Assembly: GCA_000438195.1 (NCBI GenBank) | Contig: FR903077.1 | Coordinates: 112,814-144,813, forward strand | Direction of reading: 5' to 3' | Source of the DNA: Mycoplasma sp. CAG:776 | GTDB lineage: Bacteria > Bacillota_I > Bacilli_A > RF39 > UBA660 | DNA length: 32,000 nucleotides | Part shown: one piece after another, positions 2,829 through 27,357 of the stretch | How positions within the stretch are numbered: position 1 is the stretch's first letter | How the letters are laid out: each line of letters opens with the position of its first letter | Notes under the pieces: model-generated | Databases searched by the model: none | What the model saw: only the letters and a program-made list of their open reading frames with translations | What the model was told of the DNA's origin: nothing | Position numbers and translations under genes: made by a program

Positions 2829-4451
2829 TTGAAAAAAAGATTTATTTTTGATGAAAATTATATTAAAAAATATGCAAAAAAAGATAGATTAAAATGGTTG
2901 ATCATAGGCTTATCTGCATTAGTTTTAATAGTGGTTATAATTATCGTTATTTTAGCTACCAGAAATGACACTGCAGATCCAGTAGATCCCGCCGTACCAT
3001 CATTTAAAATAAAAGATGAGTTAATAATAGAAGCAGGGTCTACATTACCAGATGTTACAGATTATTTTGATACTTTAGAAAATATTGATATTGATGAAAT
3101 AGAAATAATATATCCAGATGAATTTGAACTAAGCTATGATACTTCTTTGTGTAGTGAAAAAGAAATAGAAGAGTTATTTAGTGAAGAAAATCCAAATTAT
3201 GAGAATTATGAATGTATACAAAATTATTTAATTATACCAGCAACATATGGTATTACCATTAAGTTACAAGAGGAAGAATATACGGTAAATTTAATTGTAG
3301 AAGATAGTAAAGCCCCAGTATTAATTACCAAAAATGTAGAAATATATGAGGGAGATACTTATGAATTAAGTGATTTTGTTAATACATGCTTCGATACAAC
3401 AAGTGAATGTGATATCACATATTATACAGGTGATAAAGACGCTGAAGGAAACCCAATTGATTATTCTAATATTACCGCAGTGGGTGAACATACAATTAAA
3501 ATTATCGCAACTGATGATTATGGTAATATTACAGAACCAGTAGAAGCAAAATTAACAATATTAGAAGCTGAAGGTGAAATGTATACTGTTACTTTTGATT
3601 CAAATGGTGGAACTACTATTAGAAGTAAAAAAGTAAATGAAAACGATATTGTTATTAAACCAACCGAGCCAAAAAGAGAAGGATATAAATTCTTAGGTTG
3701 GTATTTAGGAGATGAAGAATTCGATTTCGATACTAAAATAACATCCAATATAACCCTAACAGCCAAATGGGAAAAAATAAATGAAGGCGGAGGAAGCCAA
3801 GGTGGCGGAACAGTTAATGTGACAAACGTTTCCTTAAATTATAAAAAAATCTATTTAAAAATAGGAGAAACAAAAACAGTAACAGCTAAAGTAAGTCCTT
3901 CTAATGCAACGAATAAAACAGTTACATGGAGTAGTTCTAATAATAATATAGCAACAGTATCAAATGGTAAGATTACCGGGAAAAGTGCTGGAACCGTAAC
4001 AATTACAGCAACGGCTGGAGGAAAATCAGCAAGTGTAGAAGTAGTAGTAAGTAACTCAAGTGGTGGTACAACATGTACCTATGGTGATACTACTTATAAT
4101 CCAAGTTATGTTTTATCTGTAAATTTAACCCAAAATAATTGCGCAGTCAATCCAAATTCTACACCAAATGAAACGTTATCAACTAGTGATTATTCTAGAT
4201 TAGTAAGGGATTTAAATGATATAGGCTTAAGAGTAACAGGTAATAATTTTGCACATAAAGTAGAACGACAAAAAATAAAAAATACTAGTGGTACTGGACT
4301 AGTAGGATATCAAATAACAATAACTGTAAGTATTGTAGATACTGATAATCCATATGCAGTTTTAACATCAAAATATATTTTAAAATCTGATGGCTCAAGA
4401 CAATTTTTGCAAAATAACATATGTAAAAATGGAATATGCCTAAATAATTAA
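2829..4451 (+). CDS. Membrane-anchored surface protein with a Listeria-Bacteroides (Flg_new) repeat and a Big_2 Ig-like domain
   Basis: TTG start after AAGGACGGGGA. N-terminal TM LIIGLSALVLIVVIIIVILA. 'YTVTFDSNGGT...REGYKFLGWY...ITLTAKW' is the Flg_new repeat signature. 'VTNVSL...IGETKTVTAKVSPSNATNKTVTWSSSNNNIATVS..GKITGKSAGTVTITAT' is a Big_2 signature. Cys-containing C-terminal domain. Confidence 0.8.
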   Translation: MKKRFIFDENYIKKYAKKDRLKWLIIGLSALVLIVVIIIVILATRNDTADPVDPAVPSFKIKDELIIEAGSTLPDVTDYFDTLENIDIDEIEIIYPDEFELSYDTSLCSEKEIEELFSEENPNYENYECIQNYLIIPATYGITIKLQEEEYTVNLIVEDSKAPVLITKNVEIYEGDTYELSDFVNTCFDTTSECDITYYTGDKDAEGNPIDYSNITAVGEHTIKIIATDDYGNITEPVEAKLTILEAEGEMYTVTFDSNGGTTIRSKKVNENDIVIKPTEPKREGYKFLGWYLGDEEFDFDTKITSNITLTAKWEKINEGGGSQGGGTVNVTNVSLNYKKIYLKIGETKTVTAKVSPSNATNKTVTWSSSNNNIATVSNGKITGKSAGTVTITATAGGKSASVEVVVSNSSGGTTCTYGDTTYNPSYVLSVNLTQNNCAVNPNSTPNETLSTSDYSRLVRDLNDIGLRVTGNNFAHKVERQKIKNTSGTGLVGYQITITVSIVDTDNPYAVLTSKYILKSDGSRQFLQNNICKNGICLNN

Positions 4452-4556: not shown

Positions 4557-5784
4557 ATGAAAAGAAAAATCTTAATCCTCTCAACAGCACTATTAATAGT
4601 AGTTGGGGGGGGGGGTATCTTAAATTAAAAGATACTAACAAAGAAGGAGAATTAGTAAGTGCTGAAACTTTAAAAGAAAAAAGTTTAGTAGGTATTTATA
4701 TTGAAGAAGATAATAATTATACAAAGGTAGATCAAATACCAGATACAGGATATACCATTAATGAGGAAAAAAGCTATTGTAAGATAGGTGATGAACTACA
4801 AGATATGACCATCACTTATGATATGAATACAAAAACGCTAAGTATTGCTCCAATGACAATGAAAGGAACAAAATGCTATTTATATTTTGATGAAGAACCA
4901 ACATTAAAAGATACCATATTAGCAAATAGTAAAGTAAATGAAGGAACACCAAATTTTGCAAATGTAGCAACAAAAGGCGAAGGAATATACAAGACCCAAG
5001 ATGATTGGGGAGATAGTTACTACTTTAGAGGAGATGTAAAAAATAATTGGTTAAAGTTTGCAGGTTACTATTGGCGAATAATCCGGATCAATGGAGATGG
5101 AAGTATCCGAGTAATCTATAATGGAAAAAGTACTGCAATGGACGGAAATGATACCGTAATAAGTAGCTCACAAGTTTTTAATTCTAATAAAAATCAAAGC
5201 GAATATGTAGATATATGTACACCGAAGGAGAGCAACATGGAAATATAACGAATAGTTCAATCAAAGGAGTATTAGATAGTTGGTATAGTAGTAATCTAGC
5301 AAGTTATGCGGATAAGATAAGTACCGAAGCTGGATTTTGTGGAGATAGAAATTTAGAAAGCGGATCATGGAGTAGTACAGGGTCAAAACTTTATGCCGCA
5401 TACGGAAGATTAGCAGATAATAAAGCACCAACATTAAAATGTAGTAATAGTAGTGATTTATATACAACCTCATCAAGTAGTAAAGGGAATAAAAAACTAA
5501 CCAATCCAATCGGACTAATCACAGCTGATGAGGTTAGTATGGCCGGAGGAGTATTTGGAAGCAATAATAATAGTTACTACCTATATAATAAGGAAGATTA
5601 TTGGACCATGTCTCCATCTAACTTTCGCAGTAATCTTGCTCTCGTGTTCTATGTGCGTTCATATGGTGACCTCAACGGTACGAACGTGAATAATCCAATT
5701 GGTATCCGCCCAGTTATCAATATAGCAAGTAATGTAGCAATAAAATCCGGAAATGGCACATCTTCCGAACCGTATGAAATTTAA
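4557..5784 (+). pseudogene. Disrupted / phase-OFF secreted protein with a C-terminal lectin-like (DUF1566/CLec-style) module
   Basis: ATG 4557 with RBS GAGGAGAAAG encodes the signal-anchor MKRKILILSTALLIVVGGGG, then stops at 4626 because of the 11-G run. One extra G joins it to the 4805..5248 frame. A second one-base shift near 5191-5215 separates that frame from 5215..5784 (…YWTMSPS…ALVFYV…GIRPVINI). Confidence 0.75.
4605..4615 (+). repeat. Homopolymeric G(11) tract inside the signal-peptide coding region
   Basis: Counted directly: gtt-GGGGGGGGGGG-tatc. This is the only long G/C homopolymer I saw in this AT-rich window. Confidence 0.95.
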
Positions 5785-5855: not shown

Positions 5856-7661
5856 TTATCTATTTCCTCTAAAACGATCTTTTGGATCTAATATTTTCTT
5901 ACGTAAACGAATATCTGTTGGCGTAACTTCTACTAATTCATCATCTTCAATAAATTCTAAAGCTTCTTCAAGAGTAAACTTTTTAGGTCTAGTTAAATTA
6001 ATAGCCTCATCACTACCACTAGCTCTTGTGTTAGTTAAATTTTTATTTTTACAAGGATTAACATCTAAATCATTATCTCTATTATGAATACCAATAATCA
6101 TACCAACATAAACTTCTGTTGCTGGTTCAATGATTAAAGTACCTCGGTCTTCTAAATTCCATAAAGAATAACCTAAAGCTTTTCCATTTTCCATTGAAAC
6201 TAAAACGCCATTTTTTCTTCTAGCAATAGCACCCACATAAGGTTTATATTCTGAAAAACTTCTAACCATAACACCCTCACCTTTAGTATTGGTAATAAAA
6301 GCACTACGATAACCAATCAATCCTCTAGTAGGAGCTGAAAATTCTAAATGAACATAATTATTTTCTTCGTTATTAGTAATAACTTCTAAAGTAGCTTTTC
6401 TTTCTTGTAAATCATTAATAATTGTACCTGAATAATCATTTGGGACATTGATAATAACTTTCTCAAATGGCTCATATTTCTTTCCATCTCTTTCTTCTAA
6501 TAATACTTCTGGTTTAGAAACAGAAAGCTCATAACCTTCTCTTCGCATGTTTTCAAGTAGTATAGATAAATGGAGCTCACCACGACCACTAACTTTAAAA
6601 CCATCTGCACCCTCTAACTCTTCAACAACTAAACCAACATTAGTCTGGAGTTCTTTTTCTAATCTTTCTCTAATATGTCTAGAAGTTAAAAATTTACCAC
6701 TTCTACCAGCAAAAGGAGAAGAATTAACTAAGAAATTCATAGACAAAGTTGGTTTTTCTATATGAATAGGAGGTAATGGATCAATAACTCCTTTTTCACA
6801 AATAGTATCGCCAATTGAAATATCACTACAACCAGCAATAGTAACAATATCACCAAAATAAGCAACATCTTTTTCTACTCTTCTAATACCTTCGTTAACA
6901 AATAATTTACTAATACGAAAACATTCTTCTTTTCCATCATTTTTAATTAAGGTAACAGTCTCGCCATTTTTAATTTTACCTTTATTAATACGACCAACCC
7001 CAAGTCTTCCGATATAATCATCATAATCTAGATTAGAAATTTGAAGTTGTAAAGGATCATTTTCATTTCCTTTAAAAGGTTCTACTTGTTTTAAGATAGT
7101 TTCCAATAAAGGCTCTATATTATTACTTTCACTATCTAAAGAAAGTTTAGCAATACCCTCTTTAGCAATCCCATAAACGATTGGAAAATCAAGCTGTTCA
7201 TCTGTAGCATTAAGTTCCATAAAAAGATTAAATGTCATATCAACAACTTCTAAAGGTCTTGCATCTTTTTTATCAATTTTATTAATAAATAAAATTGGTT
7301 TTAAGTTTTGTTCTAAAGCTTTACTTAAAACAAATCTTGTTTGAGGCATAGGGCCTTCTGCTGAATCGACAAGTAAAATAACCGTATCAACTGTTTTAAT
7401 AACTCTTTCTACTTCTGATGAGAAATCAGCATGACCAGGAGTATCCACAATATTTATTTTAATATCTTTATAACGAATAGCACAATTCTTAGAATAAATA
7501 GTGATACCTCTTTCTTTTTCAAGATCATTAGAATCCATTACTCTTTCTTCTACTACCTCATGACTATTAAAAACACCATTTTGTTCTAGTAAAGCATCTA
7601 CTAAAGTACTTTTACCAGCATCAACATGGGCAACCACAGCAATATTTATGATTTTTTCCAT
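5856..7661 (-). CDS. typA: Translational GTPase TypA/BipA
   Basis: G1 AHVDAGKST, G3 DTPGH, G4 NKID. EF-G-like domains with the BipA-specific C-terminal domain. 601 aa. RBS AAGGAGCG. Confidence 0.95.
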   Translation of the reverse strand: MEKIINIAVVAHVDAGKSTLVDALLEQNGVFNSHEVVEERVMDSNDLEKERGITIYSKNCAIRYKDIKINIVDTPGHADFSSEVERVIKTVDTVILLVDSAEGPMPQTRFVLSKALEQNLKPILFINKIDKKDARPLEVVDMTFNLFMELNATDEQLDFPIVYGIAKEGIAKLSLDSESNNIEPLLETILKQVEPFKGNENDPLQLQISNLDYDDYIGRLGVGRINKGKIKNGETVTLIKNDGKEECFRISKLFVNEGIRRVEKDVAYFGDIVTIAGCSDISIGDTICEKGVIDPLPPIHIEKPTLSMNFLVNSSPFAGRSGKFLTSRHIRERLEKELQTNVGLVVEELEGADGFKVSGRGELHLSILLENMRREGYELSVSKPEVLLEERDGKKYEPFEKVIINVPNDYSGTIINDLQERKATLEVITNNEENNYVHLEFSAPTRGLIGYRSAFITNTKGEGVMVRSFSEYKPYVGAIARRKNGVLVSMENGKALGYSLWNLEDRGTLIIEPATEVYVGMIIGIHNRDNDLDVNPCKNKNLTNTRASGSDEAINLTRPKKFTLEEALEFIEDDELVEVTPTDIRLRKKILDPKDRFRGNR

Positions 7662-7729: not shown

Positions 7730-9043
7730 CTATTTTAGTTCTCTAGTTAAATGCATATCTTGTTCCCTAAAAATAATATCATCAATGAAAGAGGAAGCCA
7801 TAAGATAATCCTCTTTTTTATAAAAATTACTATTTAAAATTCTCTTTTTTACTTCTTCTTTTTGTTCTTCATTGATACTTAAATCTAAAAAAGAGCGGAT
7901 AAAAAGAGCACAAGTAACCATATGAGAGCAATCCCTATCAGTAATAAAAGCATCTTTAAAGTTAAATTCTTCTATACAATCTATAACGGTTAAATATAGA
8001 GAAGTAAAAGTACCATCAGTAAACCATTTTTTTTCTAATTTTGGAAAATCTAATCCATCTAAAGTTTTAGCTTTTAAAAAATATTCTTCTATACTAGGAT
8101 TAGTAGCAATTAATAAATATTTTTGCTGTAGGAGATCTTTTTTCCAACCATTTTCTTCTAATTTATGTAGGTATTGATTTAAATACACAATATAATAGCG
8201 AATAAAGAAGTCAATTTCATTAAAAAGATAAGTTTTATCAGGGATTAAATTATCCAAAATAGAATTCTGTTCATCTTCTTCCATATCATTTTCTGGTATA
8301 TCTTTCTTATTATAATTAGAAAAAGAAATATCATCTTCTTCCATAGAAGTAATGATACGTTGATAATTTAGGCTTGATAGTTGTTTTTTATGTTTTGAAA
8401 ATAAAATAATATACCAGTCTGAATTACAAAAATCACAATCATCGTCTACTAAGTACATCTCATTAAAATAAGATAAAATAACTTCAATTTTAATTAAATC
8501 ATCATCTTGCAACATCGCATAATAATCTTCGTGTTGCTTAACCAGAGATTGAACTAAAGAAACTAAAATAGGATTTATAATTCCCGTTTTAGCTTCTTGA
8601 TAAGCTAAAAATAGATAATTCTGCATAATAGTAAAACAATTACTAAATAGATTAGTATATTTATCATAACAAGGCTTTATATTCAAATCTCTATAAATAC
8701 ATATATTATGTAGGGTATTTGATATAAAACCATCATAAGTTAAATCTTCATCTTCCAATGCTAAAAGAACTAAGTCTTCTAATAAATCTAAATATTCCTC
8801 ATCAGAAAAACAAATTCGGTTATCTTGAATAGTAAAATTATTTTCACTCATTTCCTCAAATTTATCAAATTCTTGATTAAAGTCATATTCTAAAATTACA
8901 TTTAATTGATTTCCTATAAGTTCTTCTAAGGTATAAAAAGCTTTTTCTAAATTGTCTAACTCTAACTCTTCTCCATCAGATGTTTTGTAATATAATTTAA
9001 TTAGTTCTAAAAGCATAATTTCACTGTGAATCATCAAAAACAC
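7730..9043 (-). CDS. Hypothetical acidic cytoplasmic protein (no recognisable family)
   Basis: Long uninterrupted ORF with genome-typical codon usage. Rich in D/E/L/Y/F, with no TM segment or signal peptide. The start is ambiguous (GTG 9043, ATG 9034 or ATG 9016) and none has a strong SD. Confidence 0.55.
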   Translation of the reverse strand: MFLMIHSEIMLLELIKLYYKTSDGEELELDNLEKAFYTLEELIGNQLNVILEYDFNQEFDKFEEMSENNFTIQDNRICFSDEEYLDLLEDLVLLALEDEDLTYDGFISNTLHNICIYRDLNIKPCYDKYTNLFSNCFTIMQNYLFLAYQEAKTGIINPILVSLVQSLVKQHEDYYAMLQDDDLIKIEVILSYFNEMYLVDDDCDFCNSDWYIILFSKHKKQLSSLNYQRIITSMEEDDISFSNYNKKDIPENDMEEDEQNSILDNLIPDKTYLFNEIDFFIRYYIVYLNQYLHKLEENGWKKDLLQQKYLLIATNPSIEEYFLKAKTLDGLDFPKLEKKWFTDGTFTSLYLTVIDCIEEFNFKDAFITDRDCSHMVTCALFIRSFLDLSINEEQKEEVKKRILNSNFYKKEDYLMASSFIDDIIFREQDMHLTRELK

Positions 9044-9090
9044 TCATTTCTATAAAAAACTATTATAAAGAAAAAAACGAAGAAAAGCAA

Positions 9091-9115
9091 TAAAAAAGTC
9101 TGGCAAAAGCCAGAC
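9091..9115 (-). terminator. Rho-independent terminator on the minus strand, upstream of the 7730..9043 gene
   Basis: The minus strand reads GTCTGGC-TTTT-GCCAGAC-TTTTTTA (7-bp GC-rich stem, 4-nt loop, U-tract). Confidence 0.75.
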
Positions 9116-9252
9116 CAAAATAATGCAATAGTTCCAAATACTTGACTAGAAACGTCATTATTAAATGTTTAGTATAAAACAAGGAATTAAACTGTTAAGA
9201 GTGGTGAGGAGACTTCTTATTAAGTGTGTGAATATCTAATCCCTACTATAAA

Positions 9253-9939: not shown

Positions 9940-12075
9940 ATGAATGAAACAATAATAAAAAATATATGTTTAGAATTAAACATTAAAGAATATCAAGTAA
10001 AAAATACTTTAAATTTATTAAGCGAAGGAGCAACAATGCCTTTTATTGCTAGATATCGTAAAGAAGCAACCGGAGCCTTAGATGAAAATGAGATTAACCA
10101 TATTAATGAAGTATATACCTATCAAGTAAACTTACTAAAAAGGAAAGATGATGTAATTCGTTTGATAGATGAAAAAGGATTACTTACTGAAGAATTAAGA
10201 ACAAGTATTATGAATGCCGAAAAACTAGTAGATGTAGAAGATTTATATCGACCATTTAAAGAAAAGAAAAAAACAAAGGCAACAGAAGCCATTAAGCTAG
10301 GACTAGAACCTCTTGCCAAGGAAATATTTAGAGAGAATAAAGATATTTTAAATATAGCTAAAAATTTCCTAAATGAGAAAGTTCCAACTATTGAGTTTGC
10401 TTTAGAACAAGCATGTTTTATTGTCGCTGAAAATATATCCGATAATGCTAGTTTTCGTAAATACATTAGAAACTATCTATATCGTAATGGAGTAATAAAA
10501 TCAAGTGCAAAGAAAAATAGTAAAGATGAAGAAAAAATATACGAAATGTATTATAATTTTGAAATAAAAGTAAGTTGGATCAAACCTCATCAGTTACTAG
10601 CAATGAATAGAGGTGAAAAAGAAGGAGCATTAAAGGTAGAAATATCAGCTCCAATGGAAAAAGTAGAAAGTTTTTTAGAAAATAAACTAATTCATAAAAA
10701 TAATAAAGAAACAACAGAGCTATTAAAAACAAGCATTACTGATGCCTTAAAAAGATTGATTATGCCAAGCATTGAAAGAGAAATTAGAGCGGATTTAACA
10801 GAAGTTGCCGAAGAAAGTGCCATTAAAAATTTTGGAACGAATTTAAAGAATTTACTAATGCAACCACCAATAAAAAGTAGAACAGTATTAGGATTTGATC
10901 CCGCCTTTAGAACTGGCTGTAAATTAGCAGTAATCTCTCCAACTGGTTCTTTATTACACATAGATGTTATCTATCCTCATGAACCTAAAAATGATTATGA
11001 AGGATCAAAAAAGAAATTATTAGACTTAATCAGTAAATATAATATTGATGTAATAGCAATTGGAAATGGTACAGCCTCAAGAGAATCAGAAAGTTTTGTT
11101 GCAAGTGTAATAAAAGAAGCAAACAGAGAAGTATCATATATAATTGTTAATGAAGCGGGTGCAAGTGTGTATTCTGCCTCTAAATTAGCCCAAGAAGAAT
11201 TTCCTGATTTACATGTTGAAGAACGTAGTGCGGTATCCATTGCTAGACGCCTAATAGATCCTTTAAGTGAACTAGTAAAAATAGAACCAAAAAGTATTGG
11301 CGTAGGAATGTATCAACATGATGTAACACCGAAAAAATTAGATGGAGAACTAGAATTTGTAGTATCAACTGCTGTGAACTCAGTTGGTGTAAATGTAAAT
11401 ACTGCCTCAAGAGAACTATTATCGTATATATCAGGATTAAATAAAAAAGTAATTGATAAATTACTCGATTATAAAGAAAAAGTTGGAAGTATATTATCTC
11501 GTAAAGAATTATCGAAAGTATTTAGTGAAAAAGTATATGAGCAAGCAATAGGGTTCTTAAGAATTCCTGAAGGAAATAACATATTAGATAAAACTTCTAT
11601 TCACCCAGAAAGTTACAATATTGTAAGTGAATTGTTAAAGAAATGTGATTTAACAGAAAATGATATAGGTAAAGAGAAAATAAAAGAAAAATTAAACAAT
11701 ATTGATATTGAAAAGTTAAGCGAAGAACTGAAAACAGATAAATATACATTAGAAGATATCATAAAGTCATTAATATCACCCCTTAGAGATCCAAGAGATG
11801 AATTAAATGCCCCAATTTTAAAAAGTGATATATTAACAATTGATGATCTTAAAATAGGTATGGAATTACAAGGTACAGTAAGAAATGTAATTGATTTTGG
11901 AGCTTTTATTGATATAGGGCTTAAAAATGATGCTTTAGTTCATATTTCTGAAATAACTGATAAATATATTAAACATCCAAGTGAAATCTTAAACGTGGGC
12001 GATATTGTAAAATGTTATGTTTTAGATATTGACAAAGAGAAAAAAAGGGTATCCTTGACATTAAAAAAGAAGTAA
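9940..12075 (+). CDS. tex: Tex-family transcription accessory protein (YqgF/RuvC-like, HhH and C-terminal S1 domains)
   Basis: N-terminal 'PFIARYRKEATG' Tex motif, central YqgF-like region (VLGFDPAFRTGCKLAVI), C-terminal S1 domain (GTVRNVIDFGAFIDIG...DALVHISE). 711 aa. Confidence 0.9.
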   Translation: MNETIIKNICLELNIKEYQVKNTLNLLSEGATMPFIARYRKEATGALDENEINHINEVYTYQVNLLKRKDDVIRLIDEKGLLTEELRTSIMNAEKLVDVEDLYRPFKEKKKTKATEAIKLGLEPLAKEIFRENKDILNIAKNFLNEKVPTIEFALEQACFIVAENISDNASFRKYIRNYLYRNGVIKSSAKKNSKDEEKIYEMYYNFEIKVSWIKPHQLLAMNRGEKEGALKVEISAPMEKVESFLENKLIHKNNKETTELLKTSITDALKRLIMPSIEREIRADLTEVAEESAIKNFGTNLKNLLMQPPIKSRTVLGFDPAFRTGCKLAVISPTGSLLHIDVIYPHEPKNDYEGSKKKLLDLISKYNIDVIAIGNGTASRESESFVASVIKEANREVSYIIVNEAGASVYSASKLAQEEFPDLHVEERSAVSIARRLIDPLSELVKIEPKSIGVGMYQHDVTPKKLDGELEFVVSTAVNSVGVNVNTASRELLSYISGLNKKVIDKLLDYKEKVGSILSRKELSKVFSEKVYEQAIGFLRIPEGNNILDKTSIHPESYNIVSELLKKCDLTENDIGKEKIKEKLNNIDIEKLSEELKTDKYTLEDIIKSLISPLRDPRDELNAPILKSDILTIDDLKIGMELQGTVRNVIDFGAFIDIGLKNDALVHISEITDKYIKHPSEILNVGDIVKCYVLDIDKEKKRVSLTLKKK

Positions 12076-14870: not shown

Positions 14871-14894
14871 TTTAAATAGTAGGGAGTGTTCCAA

Positions 14895-17486
14895 ATGAAC
14901 GATAGCAATTTACAAGAACAATATGCATTATTAGAAGAGGAGAAAAAAGAAAATAACAAAAAAACTATTATAATTATTATCTTATGTATTTTAATTATTT
15001 TAGTAACAATTTTAGGAATAGTATTTTCATTATCTGGACGCAAGAAAACATGTACAATAAATTGTGATTTAGATGGTGATGGCATAATTGAAACCAACAT
15101 TGATTTAGATGGCGATGGAATTTGTGACGTTAACTGCGATACTGATGGTGATGGTAAACCAGATATTAATATTGATTGGAAAGGTGATAGAAAACCACAT
15201 TTCAATATTGATACAGATGGTGATGGAAAGCCAGATGTTAATTTAGTAAATAAGGATACAGATGGTGATGGAAAACCAGATTTCAATATTGATTTAGATG
15301 ATGACGGATGGCCTGATATTAATATTGATTTAGACAATACAAATACTTGTGATTTAAATTGTGATACTGATGGCGATAATAAACCAGACATAAATATAGA
15401 TGCTAATGGTGATGGCAAACCAGATGTAAATGTGGATACCGATGGAGATGGTAAACCAGATAAAAATTTAATAGATCAAGATACTGATGGTGATGGTGTA
15501 TGTGATTTAAACTGTGACACCGATGGTGATGGTTTTCCAGATACAAATATTGATACAAACGGTGATGGAAAACCAGATTTGAATATTGATAATGACAATG
15601 ATGGTGTGTGTGATGTAAATTGCGATACCAATAATGATGGTAAACCAGATGTAAATATTGATATAGATGGTGATGGTAAACCAGATATAAATGTAGATAC
15701 CGATGGCGATGGAAAACCAGATGAAAATAAAACAAATCAAGATACTGATAATGATGGTGTATGTGACTTAAATTGTGATACGAACCATGATGGCAAACCG
15801 GATATCAATATTGATATAGATGGTGATGGAAAACCAGACATTAACATCGATACTGATGATGATGGTGTATGTGATATAAATTGTGATACTGATGGTGATG
15901 GAAAGCCAGATATCAATATTGATACTGATAATGATGGAACATGTGATTTAAATTGTGATACTAATGGCAATGGAAAGCCAGATATCAATATTGATGCTGA
16001 TAATGATGGAACATGTGATTTAAATTGTGATACTGATGGCGATGGCAAACCGGATATAAATATTGACTATGATGGCGATGGCAAACCAGACTTTAATGTA
16101 GATACTGATAAAGATGGCAAACCAGATAAAAATTTAACAGATCAAGATACCAATGGTGACGGTGTATGTGACCTAAACTGTGATACAGATAAGGACGGCT
16201 TCCCAGATACTAATATTGATATAGATGGTGATGGAAAACCAGACATTAACATCGATACTGATGGTGATGGAAAACCAGACATTAACATTGATGTAGATAA
16301 AGATGGCAAACCAGATGTAAATATCGATACCGATGGTGATGGCAAACCAGATGAAAATTTAACCGACCAAGATACCAATGGCGATGGTGTATGTGACTTA
16401 AATTGTGATACTGATGGTGATGGAAAACCGGATACTAATATAGATGTAGATGGTGATAAAAATCCAGACATTAACATCGATACTGATAATGATGGAGTTT
16501 GTGATTTAAATTGTGACACTGATGGCGATGGTAAACCGGATACTAATATAGATGTAGATGGTGATGGCAAACCAGACATAAATATTGATACCGATGGTGA
16601 TGGAAAGCCAGATGAAAATTTAACCGACCAAGATACCAATGGTGATGGCGTATGTGATCTAAATTGCGATACCAATAATGATGGCAAACCAGACACTAAT
16701 ATAGATGTAGATGGCGATGGTGTATGCGATCTAAATTGTGATAATAATGGTGATGGTGTATGTGACACAAATTGTGTAGGAGAGCTATATAGTAGTGCAG
16801 ACTTAAGCAGTTTAAAAGTAGGAAACTATACATTAAAACCAAGCTTTAATAAAGATATTACTGATTATACAGTTGAGGTTGATAGTAATTTAACCGAAGT
16901 ATTAGTAAGTGCAACAGCTGTAAATTCAAAATCTAAAATAATTGGAGCTGGAACAGTAAAACTAACAAGTGACTCAACAAGAGTATCAATTACCGTAATT
17001 GCTCAAAATGGAAAGACTAAAACTTATAATATTACAATTAATAAAGCTAAGAACCCTAGTACTTCTGAAGAAGGAAGTGGAAATGTAGATATTGGGACAT
17101 CAGAAAATGGAATTTTAACTGTAAGTTTTACAAAGCCAATGTATGCAACAAATATATGGCCAGGATGGACGGGAATACACGAATTTACAATAAAAAATAA
17201 TTCTGATAAAGCTGTTGTGTATAATATAAATTTAATAAATGTAACAAATACATTTACAAGTGATAATTTTGTATACACCCTAGTAAAAGATGGAAAAACA
17301 CTTATCACTAAAACTCCAGCTTTAAAATCAGATGGTAAAGTAATTGAAAACCTAGTGATAGCACCTGGAGAAACAGCTGTTTTCCAAATGAATTATGAAT
17401 TTGTAGAAATTGGTAAACCACAAGATTATGATCAAGGTAAAAACTATAAAGGAACCATAGAAATACAAATTGTATCTGCAAATTAA
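14895..17486 (+). CDS. Membrane-anchored giant Asp/Cys-rich calcium-binding repeat protein (thrombospondin type-3-like repeats, cadherin-like beta-sandwich, TasA-like C-terminal domain)
   Basis: ATG 14895 after TAGGGAG. N-terminal TM IIIIILCILIILVTILGIVFSL. About 570 aa of DxDGDGKPDxNID units punctuated by 15 CxxNC motifs. 'LSSLKVGNYTLKPSFNKDITDYTVEV…ITVIAQNGKTKTYNITI' fits the cadherin-like beta-sandwich pattern. The last ~130 aa resemble the two small TasA-like proteins. Confidence 0.85.
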   Translation: MNDSNLQEQYALLEEEKKENNKKTIIIIILCILIILVTILGIVFSLSGRKKTCTINCDLDGDGIIETNIDLDGDGICDVNCDTDGDGKPDINIDWKGDRKPHFNIDTDGDGKPDVNLVNKDTDGDGKPDFNIDLDDDGWPDINIDLDNTNTCDLNCDTDGDNKPDINIDANGDGKPDVNVDTDGDGKPDKNLIDQDTDGDGVCDLNCDTDGDGFPDTNIDTNGDGKPDLNIDNDNDGVCDVNCDTNNDGKPDVNIDIDGDGKPDINVDTDGDGKPDENKTNQDTDNDGVCDLNCDTNHDGKPDINIDIDGDGKPDINIDTDDDGVCDINCDTDGDGKPDINIDTDNDGTCDLNCDTNGNGKPDINIDADNDGTCDLNCDTDGDGKPDINIDYDGDGKPDFNVDTDKDGKPDKNLTDQDTNGDGVCDLNCDTDKDGFPDTNIDIDGDGKPDINIDTDGDGKPDINIDVDKDGKPDVNIDTDGDGKPDENLTDQDTNGDGVCDLNCDTDGDGKPDTNIDVDGDKNPDINIDTDNDGVCDLNCDTDGDGKPDTNIDVDGDGKPDINIDTDGDGKPDENLTDQDTNGDGVCDLNCDTNNDGKPDTNIDVDGDGVCDLNCDNNGDGVCDTNCVGELYSSADLSSLKVGNYTLKPSFNKDITDYTVEVDSNLTEVLVSATAVNSKSKIIGAGTVKLTSDSTRVSITVIAQNGKTKTYNITINKAKNPSTSEEGSGNVDIGTSENGILTVSFTKPMYATNIWPGWTGIHEFTIKNNSDKAVVYNINLINVTNTFTSDNFVYTLVKDGKTLITKTPALKSDGKVIENLVIAPGETAVFQMNYEFVEIGKPQDYDQGKNYKGTIEIQIVSAN
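15051..16775 (+). repeat. Coding tandem-repeat array (short ~10-13-codon DxDGDG units nested in a higher-order repeat of about 260 bp)
   Basis: Near-identical DNA blocks, e.g. 16326-16455 versus 16586-16715 (gataccgatggtgatgg…gatgaaaatttaaccgaccaagataccaatgg…). Repeated gatggtgatgg(a/c)aaaccaga motifs throughout. Confidence 0.9.
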
Positions 17487-25516: not shown

Positions 25517-25924
25517 ATGAAGACGATTGATAAATATCTAAAATTTAAAGAGATGTACAAAGATCATGTAGTAATTATTAAATCTGGCAATTTTTATTAT
25601 ACTTTTGATGATGACACTTATATAATGAATTATTTTTTTGGCTATCAAATAAGAGAAAATAAAATAGGCTTTCCTCTAAATGCTAAAGCCAAAGTAAAAA
25701 GTGTATTAAATCGCAATAATGTAAATTTAATTGAAGTAATAGATGACTATGCTTATATTTTAGAATCTAAAAATGATAATGCTTATCAAAATAAATTAAG
25801 AGAAGCGAAAAGTAATATGTTAGTATCTAACATGTTAAATAACTTAATGAATGCTATAGAGATAAAGGTAAAAAAAGAAGAAGCTAATTATGAATTAATA
25901 AAGGAGTTTGTAGATGAACTCTAA
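25517..25924 (+). CDS. MutS domain-I-like small protein (DGR 'MSL'-type accessory protein)
   Basis: 'KYLKFKEMYKDHVVIIKSGNFYYTFDDDTYIMNYFFGYQI…IGFPLNAKAKVKSVLNRNNVNLIEV' parallels the MutS N-terminal mismatch-binding domain (QY..iK..yPd.ll.fr.GDFYE.F..DA…l.i.lT…GvP.ha...y...L...G.kVai). RBS AAAGGGA. Overlaps the next ORF by 11 nt. Confidence 0.7.
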   Translation: MKTIDKYLKFKEMYKDHVVIIKSGNFYYTFDDDTYIMNYFFGYQIRENKIGFPLNAKAKVKSVLNRNNVNLIEVIDDYAYILESKNDNAYQNKLREAKSNMLVSNMLNNLMNAIEIKVKKEEANYELIKEFVDEL

Positions 25925-26261
25925 TTTTTCTTTATTAAATAATACCAAAAAAACAATAGCATTTATTAATAAACAATTAATAAATTATCCTAAATCAGAA
26001 GTAGTGTTGAAACAAAATATTGAAAGAAACATGTATGAATTAATTGAACTAATTTTTTCTTATAGTATTAATGATGTAGAAAGAATAAAAATAAAATTTT
26101 TAAAAGATTTAATCATTAAATTATCAATGTTAGATTTTTATATAGCAACATCTTTTGAAAAAAGAATAATTAGTAAAAAAAAGTTTGAATCAACATCTAT
26201 GTTCATTGTCGAGATAAGAAAAATAGCTTACGGATTGGTGCGAAATGAAACCAAGTGTTAA
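25914..26261 (+). CDS. avd: Avd-like four-helix-bundle accessory variability determinant
   Basis: 115 aa. The helical pattern 'INKQLINYPKSEVVLKQNIERNMYELIELIFSY…KFLKDLIIKLSMLDFYI…ISKKKFES…VEIRKIAYGLV' matches the Avd / four-helix-bundle family (fP+sE+..L..+i….l.ll.li…). RBS AAGGAG. Overlaps the RT by 17 nt. Confidence 0.75.
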   Translation: MNSNFSLLNNTKKTIAFINKQLINYPKSEVVLKQNIERNMYELIELIFSYSINDVERIKIKFLKDLIIKLSMLDFYIATSFEKRIISKKKFESTSMFIVEIRKIAYGLVRNETKC

Positions 26262-27357
26262 GTATGAGGAATTAGTAGATATCGATAAGATAATTGCCAT
26301 GTATAAAATAATAAGAGCTAACACTAAAAATAGAGGGAAATTACATAAATTTGAATTATTTTATGCTAGTAACATAATTAGCATATTAAACGTTTTAAAA
26401 TATAAAAAATATGAACATAGCCATTATAATGTATTTCTGGTTCATGAACCAAAATATCGAATTATCATGAGTGAAATCATGAGTGATAAAGTGGTAAACC
26501 ATGTTGTAAGTCACTTCGTATTAGACCCGGGCATAACTCCCCATTTAATTCCGCAGAATGTAGCTACTAGAAAAGGAATGGGAACGAAAGAAGGAATACG
26601 ATATGTTAAAAAATATATTAATAAATTAAAATTAAATTATGATAAAGTATATGTTTTGAAATGCGATATCAAAAAATACTTTTATAGTATTGATCATGAA
26701 TTAATATTAGAAAAAGTAAAAAGATTTATAACAGATCCAGATGTTTATAAATTAGTAGAAAACATAGTACAATCAACAGATAATTCTTATGTAAATGAAG
26801 CGATTGGGAAAGTAATCAATAAAGAAATCAAACGAATAGAAGGATTAAACATTTTAGATAAGGAAATTAAAATAGCAGAGTTAAAGAGTATACCTTTATA
26901 TAAAAAAGGAAAAGGGTTACCAATTGGTAATATGACCAGTCAATTATTAGCAATATATTTTTTAAATGATTTAGATCATTATATAAAAGAAAGATTATAT
27001 TGTAAGTATTATGTAAGATATATGGATGATTTTGTCATATTCGATTATGATAAAGAGCGGTTAAAAGAGATAAGAAAAAAGATAGAAGAAAAACTAATAG
27101 AATTTAAATTAGAACTGAATAGAAAAACAAATATTTATGATTTAAAGCATGGGTTTGGTTTTTTAGGTTACCAATTTATTTTAAAAGAAAAAAGACTTAT
27201 AATTAAAATTAATTCTGCTACCAAAAGAAGAATCAAAAAAAAGATGCGTAAGTTAAAAAAGATAAACGCACCAAATTATGAACAAGTAAAAGCAAGTTAT
27301 ATGGGCTACTTGACAGTTGCACATAGTAAAAACTTACTTAAGAAACTAGACCTTTAA
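26245..27357 (+). CDS. Diversity-generating-retroelement-type reverse transcriptase
   Basis: Motif 1-2 'EPKYRIIMS…DKVVNHVV', motif 4 'GLPIGNMTSQLLAIYFLNDLDHYI' (the DGR-typical I/LGxxxSQ rather than the xxSP of retron or group II RTs), catalytic 'VRYMDDFVIF', thumb 'FGFLGYQF'. 370 aa with no maturase or endonuclease domains. Confidence 0.85.
   Translation: MKPSVKYEELVDIDKIIAMYKIIRANTKNRGKLHKFELFYASNIISILNVLKYKKYEHSHYNVFLVHEPKYRIIMSEIMSDKVVNHVVSHFVLDPGITPHLIPQNVATRKGMGTKEGIRYVKKYINKLKLNYDKVYVLKCDIKKYFYSIDHELILEKVKRFITDPDVYKLVENIVQSTDNSYVNEAIGKVINKEIKRIEGLNILDKEIKIAELKSIPLYKKGKGLPIGNMTSQLLAIYFLNDLDHYIKERLYCKYYVRYMDDFVIFDYDKERLKEIRKKIEEKLIEFKLELNRKTNIYDLKHGFGFLGYQFILKEKRLIIKINSATKRRIKKKMRKLKKINAPNYEQVKASYMGYLTVAHSKNLLKKLDL

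Follow-up and report, generated by a model that had tools for sequence, protein, structure and literature searches.

The question raised by this locus is whether an adenine-poor patch near the 3' end of a surface-protein gene of Mycoplasma sp. CAG:776 is a variable region (VR) of a diversity-generating retroelement (DGR) and, if so, whether it is still being rewritten. The patch lies in a 32,000-nt stretch of DNA, which was analysed at its full length and is referred to below as the window. A preliminary description of this DNA had proposed positions 5596–5730 as a candidate remote VR, based on depletion of A, enrichment of G+C, an excess of NNY codons and a lectin-like C-terminus of the encoded protein. 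The counts were reproduced exactly: the 99 nt from 5620 to 5718 contain 23 A and 44 G+C. In the whole 32,000-nt window, A accounts for 41.6% and G+C for 27.5% of the nucleotides; 99-nt segments with A as low as in 5620–5718 constitute 0.18%, as do those with G+C as high. The codon usage was also as described, with 22 of the 28 codons in 5611–5694 being NNY and eight being NNC, and the quoted C-terminal translation is correct. Compared with the rest of the gene, the patch at 5608–5712 is enriched in NNY codons (26/35 versus 169/351 elsewhere, Fisher p = 0.004) and in NNC codons (10/35 versus 41/351, p = 0.015). A chance fluctuation in composition might produce such a patch, and about 20 other 99-nt segments in the 32 kb do hold 40–46 G+C. 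However, low A and high G+C occur here together, each in the top 0.2%, and an ungapped 105-nt homology to an independent set of template repeats (TRs), considered below, already contradicts fluctuation. We therefore give this explanation almost no weight.

The patch is part of a gene located at 4557–5784 on the forward strand, which, according to three-frame translation, codes for a surface protein with a signal anchor and a C-terminal domain resembling DUF6273; the VR is located 24 codons upstream of the stop codon. The family of this protein is large: of the 8000 candidates scored, about 6000 are relatives at E <= 1e-5. These originate from uncultured gut Bacilli and 'Tenericutes' MAGs, two of the relatives carry the name 'Mycoplasma sp. 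CAG:776', and a single genome, UMGS1172, contains at least 17 family copies. In an alignment of 18 members, the residues following YWTMSP are hypervariable within a fixed scaffold (VF.V.S.G.L...V....G[VI]RPVIN), and both flanks of the hypervariable stretch are strongly conserved.

The Pfam DUF6273 model matches residues 117–171 of the 189-aa C-terminal ORF with 20.1 bits (cut-off 23.5; E = 6.4e-4). This score is under the gathering threshold, so the protein is to be regarded as a distant relative and not as a formal Pfam member; a precomputed PF19789 match is present on some longer family members. AlphaFold models of the full-length protein and of the C-terminal domain have a pLDDT of 77 and 86, respectively. 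The best structural matches of the C-terminal model are phage DUF6273 proteins (BFVD E = 0.012, probability 0.98). The best PDB match of the full-length model, taken over the whole of the matched protein, is 9qa6 (E = 3e-4), for which an N-terminal DUF6273 domain is given in the literature. Solved C-type lectins, CD23 and others, fill the fold-match lists, but with E = 0.7–3 they are not significant alone. A PDB sequence profile search with the target protein gave no match, and Mtd shows neither a sequence match nor a significant fold match to it. The DUF6273 domain has been published as C-lectin-like and as a DGR target, and in Faecalibacterium prophage targets the VR is located at the C-terminal end of this domain (PMC11792537). 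As to the CLec-type C-terminus claimed in the preliminary description, the domain is DUF6273-like according to the sub-threshold Pfam match and the fold matches, and its probable C-lectin-like nature is taken from the literature.

In the window, the gene is split among three reading frames. The signal-anchor peptide is encoded from 4557 and is directly followed by a poly-G tract, G11 (4605–4615, forward strand), which is out of frame at this length according to the locus comparison, and the frame is lost there. The second frame stays open until about 5209; there, loss of one nucleotide (GG to G, within 5207–5211 on the forward strand) shifts the frame again; one of the compared loci (L011) has an extra G after 5209, and the intact allele encodes ...YVGYMYT... 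at this site. The C-terminal 189 codons (5215–5784) form a separate ORF. Joining the three frames gives a protein with 100% identity to an intact public protein of 393 aa (P0001), and a 408-aa full-length form also exists (P0123). The length of the poly-G tract varies: it is G11 in the window, G9 and in frame in three other assemblies (L008–L010), and G10 in L011. The out-of-frame G11 tract suggests a phase-variation switch. The truncated 189-aa product (P0121) was found on 43 contigs, and the intact forms on more than 150. The target gene is switched off in the window by the G-tract frame change and the 1-nt deletion. These two interruptions were missing from the preliminary description.

DGR proteins are encoded in the same genome. 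Three overlapping genes occupy 25517–27357 on the forward strand: an MSL (MutS domain I-like) DGR accessory gene (25517–25924; Pfam MutS_I, E = 1.6e-5, 25.5 bits, above the cut-off), an Avd-like accessory gene (25914–26261; Pfam bAvd, E = 1.8e-9, 38.5 bits versus a cut-off of 40), and a DGR-type reverse transcriptase (RT) gene (26245–27357; Pfam RVT_1, 70.7 bits), whose product contains YMDD and the PIGNMTSQ motif. The RT gene lies 20.5 kb downstream of the patch, in agreement with the same-strand distance of about 20 kb indicated earlier. The exact sequence of the RT protein was found in 402 blocks of public assemblies, each time with the same housekeeping genes around it. MSL is known as a DGR accessory gene, and the genes of the window represent the MSL-type accessory set reported by Wu et al. 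2018 (PMC5758913).

The RT cassette has no recognisable template beside it. The preliminary description had found no matching TR in the window, and the same result was obtained here by several approaches. Adenine-tolerant ungapped scans of both strands, using the VR and the RT neighbourhood as queries, revealed no TR partner in the window, and an all-against-all adenine-tolerant scan of its forward strand gave background-level scores and no TR. A generic repeat finder detected only a 36-nt repeat gene at 15000–16800 in the window, and tblastn of the window with the real and Asn-rich consensus peptides also detected no TR. The 25 kb preceding the RT and the 10 kb following it contain no TR, none was found beside the RT in nine close relatives, and about 120 kb of other loci of the same species contain no cognate TR. 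In genome contigs, the exact VR 44-mer had no match; the closest RT in this collection, which does not include the species of the window, is 91% identical.

TRs related to the patch were found in other genomes. They were first seen as matches of about 110 nt outside any family gene when an Asn-rich consensus was compared with the translations of 79 family loci; these matches cover the variable core only. The peptide conceptually encoded by a TR is an Asn-rich version of the VR peptide (MSPYNFNNGNANVFxVNSxGNLNNNNVNxTxxGVRP). The whole unit is non-coding and consists of a -10-like TATAAT, a 5' GGTTAATCT, the TR, and a conserved structured 3' domain of about 130 nt. The 5' GGTTAATCT pairs with a 3' AGATTAACC in a closing helix, in which covariation is seen; the 3' domain also contains covarying helices, and terminator-like hairpins follow several units. 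In the relatives, these units are located between housekeeping genes, away from the RT, and UMGS1172 has at least three of them, none on the contig that carries its RT. When metagenome contigs were searched for the TR tail, 23 loci were obtained, none of which is cognate to the window VR or comes from the species of the window (<=86% nucleotide identity). Spurious reverse-strand ORFs over TRs correspond to 23 proteins, all from short contigs, and none could be assigned to this species. After the tail scan, the TR set contained 36 copies, 27 of them unique, with no cognate TR among these; the closest differs from the window VR by 15 adenine and 10 non-adenine mismatches in 84 nt. Thus, a sequence that matches the VR except at TR adenines was found neither in the window, nor in the approximately 120 kb of same-species loci, nor among the TRs of the relatives.

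The association of such TRs with RTs of this type can be traced through more distant loci. An RT with 45% identity to the window RT (L133) has a TR with the same kind of tail about 900 nt upstream, and the VR in an adjacent family-like gene differs from this TR at 16 of 30 adenines and at one other position. In L117 and L119/L120, whose RTs are 50–56% identical to that of the window, apparent tandem TR units are located just upstream of the RT. Starting from a canonical cassette (L133), the system may have passed through such apparent tandem arrays (L117, L119/L120) to dispersed TR genes. In relatives, extra MSL copies are found directly behind some target genes. Taking into account the co-occurrence in relatives and the one canonical distant relative, L133, the RT of the window probably belongs to a clade tied to the dispersed TR/target family.

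The 105-nt segment at 5608–5712 on the forward strand (ATGTCTCC...CGCCCA), which makes up the core of the island, can be aligned over its whole length and without a gap with the 105-nt TR consensus (ATGTCTCCGTATAAC...GGTGTGCGCCCA), a consensus of the 27 unique TRs, drawn from related gut Bacilli genomes and contigs of species other than that of the window. The 29 differences are distributed unevenly, affecting 17 of the 35 adenines of the consensus and 12 of its 70 remaining positions (Fisher p = 0.0011), and all 17 changes at adenine sites are at codon positions 1–2. This bias is weaker than in clean TR–VR pairs; as a positive control, all 16 differences between the L067 VR and the TR consensus over 105 nt are at adenine sites, and the L133 pair shows a ratio of 16 to 1. 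Judging by this alignment, 5608–5712 is a DGR-type VR by descent. The idea that the codons of the patch represent AAY template codons after adenine mutagenesis thus receives support from both the homology and the position of the differences. The composition is explained as well, because a TR-derived sequence with scrambled template adenines is expected to look like this: the A content is 33% in the TR consensus, 23% in the patch at 5608–5712 and 42% in the remaining gene, and the G+C content is 43%, 45% and 32%, respectively.

The same similarity has to be weighed against an origin without any retroelement, in which the patch would result from recombination or gene conversion between paralogs, or from amino-acid constraint on the lectin core, and the nearby RT would be coincidental. 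Recombination clearly moves VR segments in this family, since VR cassettes are shuffled between N-terminal backbones among paralogs. Moreover, many paralogs have A+T-rich C-termini without a DNA match to TRs. On the other hand, recombination accounts for the transport of a cassette and not for how it arose: this cassette shows colinearity with TR RNA genes, which are non-coding, and differs from them mainly at TR adenines in codon positions 1–2. Nor does protein constraint force the composition of the patch, because A+T-rich codons encode the same scaffold residues in the paralogs. Finally, a cassette received from a diversified paralog would still be a VR made by a DGR. An origin without a retroelement is accordingly unlikely, and descent from a DGR template is the reading retained below.

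Descent from a TR does not mean that the VR is still active. A working remote VR, rewritten by the RT at 26245–27357 from a TR outside the window, would be consistent with the intact RT cassette and its conserved protein in the 402 assembly blocks, as well as with the adenine-biased differences from the TR consensus. The TRs of the relatives are unlinked from the RT, so the absence of a TR from the window would be expected. However, the region does not vary as an active VR should. The DNA of 5596–5730 is free of differences among five assemblies (the window and L008–L011), while the same assemblies vary in the G-tract, in the frameshift at 5209 and in clustered N-terminal substitutions. At the protein level, residues 313–393 are identical in the 15 listed members of the 90% cluster (about 215 contigs with two N-terminal alleles). 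This invariance was read from consensus assemblies, which hide within-sample variation, and low-level diversification could escape such a comparison. In these assemblies, 5608–5712 does not display the hypervariability between constant flanks that is typical of a DGR target, and the current variability implied by the preliminary description is contradicted by a result, invariance across the population, that the description itself had named as refuting. Its proposal of a remote VR therefore holds with regard to descent and fails with regard to present variation. The reading frame points in the same direction, as the gene is out of frame in the window and the frameshift allele is present on 43 contigs.

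The 12 non-adenine differences also argue against an active VR. Ten of them are G-to-A or C-to-T, nine are at codon position 3, and those at 5616, 5667, 5697, 5704 and 5706 fall in columns that are invariant in 22–26 TRs. From the type of base change, these differences are A+T-biased mutations of a sequence that is apparently no longer refreshed. Lineage-specific template bases could produce a similar picture instead of drift, but the paralogs of the same species argue against this: the window VR differs from its best TR at 10 of 55 non-adenine sites, whereas the corresponding counts are only 2 of 74 in one paralog of this species (L192:11860), which also differs at 20 of 30 adenine sites, and 3 of 76 in another. 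Two of the 12 differences are located in the G+C-rich 3' end of the VR (5701–5712, forward strand), the counterpart of an IMH-type boundary. According to the TR columns, this end is degenerate and reads GGTATCCGCCCA and not GGTGTGCGCCCA, owing to the changes at 5704 (G to A) and 5706 (G to C), both in columns invariant in 24–25 TRs. The VRs of two same-species paralogs (L192 and L193) keep GGTGTGCGCCCA, in common with the TRs. Thus, the boundary of the window VR is no longer intact.

The VRs of two other same-species paralogs are fixed, too. In the second paralog, 16 variants with differences in other parts of the sequence share one identical VR. In the third paralog group (the A8 groups), a few discrete VR cassettes recur on different N-terminal backbones, and cassettes are shared across backbones between P0002 and P0007 and between P0003 and P0008. 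Such recurrence is indicative of recombination among paralogs, or of chimeric assemblies, and not of ongoing per-site mutagenesis. The VRs appear to be frozen in the species of the window and to be reshuffled by recombination instead. In view of all this, an active VR at 5608–5712 seems quite improbable. In our opinion, the segment is probably a VR cassette written by a DGR in the past that has become a fossil, being fixed and drifting in a broken surface-protein gene.

The sequence of events can be pictured as follows. A cDNA synthesised from a G+C-rich template RNA, with the template adenines copied at random, would have replaced the 3' part of the target gene. Retrohoming presumably wrote the cassette at this site; its arrival by recombination from a diversified paralog is the alternative. 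In the A+T-rich host DNA, the VR replacement would have left behind fewer A, more G+C, and NNY codons. The retroelement responsible may be dispersed, with MSL, Avd and RT forming a cassette alone, templates encoded as separate small RNA genes elsewhere, and 10–20 paralogous genes serving as targets. At some time rewriting would have ended, so that the copy became fixed in the population and accumulated A+T drift at template-invariant positions, including the homing boundary. Possibly, mutations in this boundary or loss of the matching TR caused the arrest.

The window contains one more element that may be related to the templates. On the reverse strand at 9086–9246, there is an unannotated structured RNA-like element without a TR body, which was detected with a covariance model of the TR-RNA 3' domain (39.8 bits, E = 1e-5). 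It has the closing helix and the 3' hairpin module in common with the TR RNA genes, and no Rfam match was found for it. In six related genomes, the element precedes the Tex gene at the corresponding position; a synteny test with the neighbouring gene, which encodes a 437-aa protein, revealed no relatives. The interpretation of this element as a TR-deleted remnant was dropped, since the synteny with Tex indicates a conserved element and not the remnant of a recent deletion. The 9086–9246 element can be assigned to the DGR system only tentatively.

Taken together, the relatives of 'Mycoplasma sp. CAG:776' may possess an undescribed DGR architecture, which we put forward tentatively as a possibility short of an even chance. 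In this architecture, TRs would be located away from the RT and multiplied as RNA genes of about 330 nt that are flanked by a promoter and a terminator and serve 10–20 DUF6273-like paralogs, with an extra MSL behind some targets and a conserved TR-less sibling RNA at 9086–9246. A limited literature search revealed no paper describing independent, multiplied TR RNA genes unlinked from the RT. Several components of the system have already been described, namely remote targets, MSL accessory genes, DUF6273 targets and leftover targets without core components. Two features depart from classical DGRs: this VR is dead, and the templates have multiplied as RNA genes of their own that are not linked to the RT.

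The DGR of Bordetella phage BPP-1 (Mtd, Avd, TR and bRT) is characterised by mutagenesis specific for adenines, by a structured spacer RNA downstream of the TR, and by a G+C-rich boundary common to TR and VR. The mechanism operating here would be the same, including the organisation of a TR with a structured tail; unlike in BPP-1, the template RNA is located outside an avd-TR-brt-type transcript, and the VR shows no current variation. The DGR of Treponema denticola (Nimkulrat et al. 2016, PMC4891356; Wu et al. 2018, PMC5758913) is similar in being chromosomal and non-phage, with several paralogous surface-protein targets located far from the RT. Some of its strains keep target genes without working core components, a further point of similarity. 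The Treponema system differs in having HRDC and FGE/CLec lipoprotein targets, whereas MSL and DUF6273-like targets are found here. According to Wu et al. 2018 (PMC5758913), the usual place of a TR is immediately beside the RT; in the close relatives considered here, the TRs are separate RNA genes unlinked from it. The same set of MSL, Avd and RT as in the window is present in the MSL-containing DGRs of Architecture D (Wu et al. 2018), for example in Legionella pneumophila; in contrast to these, there is no TR in the 25 kb upstream and 10 kb downstream of the window RT, and extra MSL copies are located directly behind some targets in relatives. DUF6273 receptor-binding proteins of phages are diversified by compact cassettes in tentaclins (PMC10743442) and Faecalibacterium prophage targets (PMC11792537). 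The family studied here is, by contrast, cellular and signal-anchored, with many paralogs and a Pfam match below the cut-off.

Taken alone, the patch is a relic of little importance, and its value lies in what it led to. It is a worked example of VR decay after rewriting, in which the adenine signature is kept while synonymous G/C-to-A/T drift and erosion of the boundary proceed; this pattern can be used to tell live VRs from dead ones in single genomes. More broadly, it concerns an abundant lineage of human-gut Bacilli in which the parts of a DGR are scattered, with the RT cassette, stand-alone template RNA genes and target paralogs at separate sites. In the largest DGR survey, a repeat was required within 1 kb of the RT, and a scattered layout would therefore be missed by surveys with such a requirement. 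The prevalence of DGRs and their target repertoires in the genomes of such gut Bacilli are probably underestimated. The findings also suggest three layers of surface variation in one protein family: retroelement mutagenesis, shuffling of cassettes between paralogs, and poly-G phase switching.

Template repeats (TRs) of the diversity-generating retroelement (DGR) are also found as stand-alone RNA genes in related gut Bacilli. Such genes are located at positions 7298-7600 and 8168-8470 of locus L015, 2531-2820 of L034, 8433-8740 of L045, and 339-640 of L023. They share a layout in which a TR of approximately 105 nt lies inside a covarying closing helix, and a structured tail of approximately 130 nt, likewise conserved among them, comes after it. 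All of them are intergenic, situated amid housekeeping genes, with several copies per genome, and no RT was found near them at these four loci.

Just upstream of the RT cassettes of L117 (1322-1793) and of L119 and L120 (9050-9636), whose RTs are related at 50-56% identity, there are what appear to be two TR-plus-tail units in tandem. Such a layout may represent a step from the canonical target–TR–RT cassette of the distant relative L133 to the dispersed arrangement, or the reverse. In locus L062, a match to the TR-tail model (11061-11175, 44.9 bits) overlaps the extreme end of a target gene of the family; a TR unit fused behind the variable region (VR) or a read-through integration are possible explanations.

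The window itself contains an unannotated structured RNA-like element on the minus strand (9086-9246). Its parts are a TATACT -10 box, a closing helix formed by GGGATTAGA and TTTAATTCC, a loop with the conserved sequence CCTCACC, a hairpin module on the 3' side, and a terminator. The hairpin module closely resembles the one in the tails of the family TR RNAs (39.8 bits, E = 1e-5). The element is without a TR body and has no match in Rfam. Six related genomes (L196, L198, L199, L203, L204, and L206) have kept it, upstream of their HD and Tex genes.

Some target genes of the relatives are directly followed at the 3' side by an extra small MutS-domain-I-like (MSL) gene: L084 (11114-11425), L028 (~5186), L075 (~1667), L071 (~3626), and L019 (12261-12578). 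Neither Avd nor RT was found beside these five genes. In every case, the stretch ahead of the MSL gene carries a hairpin just past the stop codon of the target gene and a G+C-rich stem-loop (ATTGCCGCG...GGCAAT) upstream of the MSL start.

When comparing the DUF6273-like paralogs, the same VR cassette can be noted on differing N-terminal backbones, and the same backbone with differing cassettes (proteins P0002/P0007 and P0003/P0008, alignment A8). These mixed pairings can be explained either by recombination of the C-terminal cassette among paralogs or by chimeric joining of paralogs in metagenome assemblies.

In the target gene, the signal peptide is directly followed by a poly-G tract (4605-4615). 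The window has G11, which is out of frame; three other assemblies have the in-frame G9, and one further assembly has G10. Although short-read assemblies are error-prone for homopolymer lengths, these differences look like slipped-strand phase variation. Additionally, the target gene is split by a 1-nt deletion (GG to G) at 5207-5211, for which the population is polymorphic: 43 contigs encode the truncated product of 189 aa, and more than 150 encode intact forms.

Elsewhere in the window, an 866-aa ORF (14886-17486) consists mostly of 36-nt (12-aa) tandem units with 60-83% identity and dominated all repeat scans of the window; its product is probably a surface or structural protein. On its upstream side, the target is directly adjoined by a gene (2829-4451) for a protein that is anchored in the membrane and carries a Big_2 domain as well as a Listeria-Bacteroides repeat (Flg_new). 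Thus, the VR gene lies within a small cluster of surface-protein genes.
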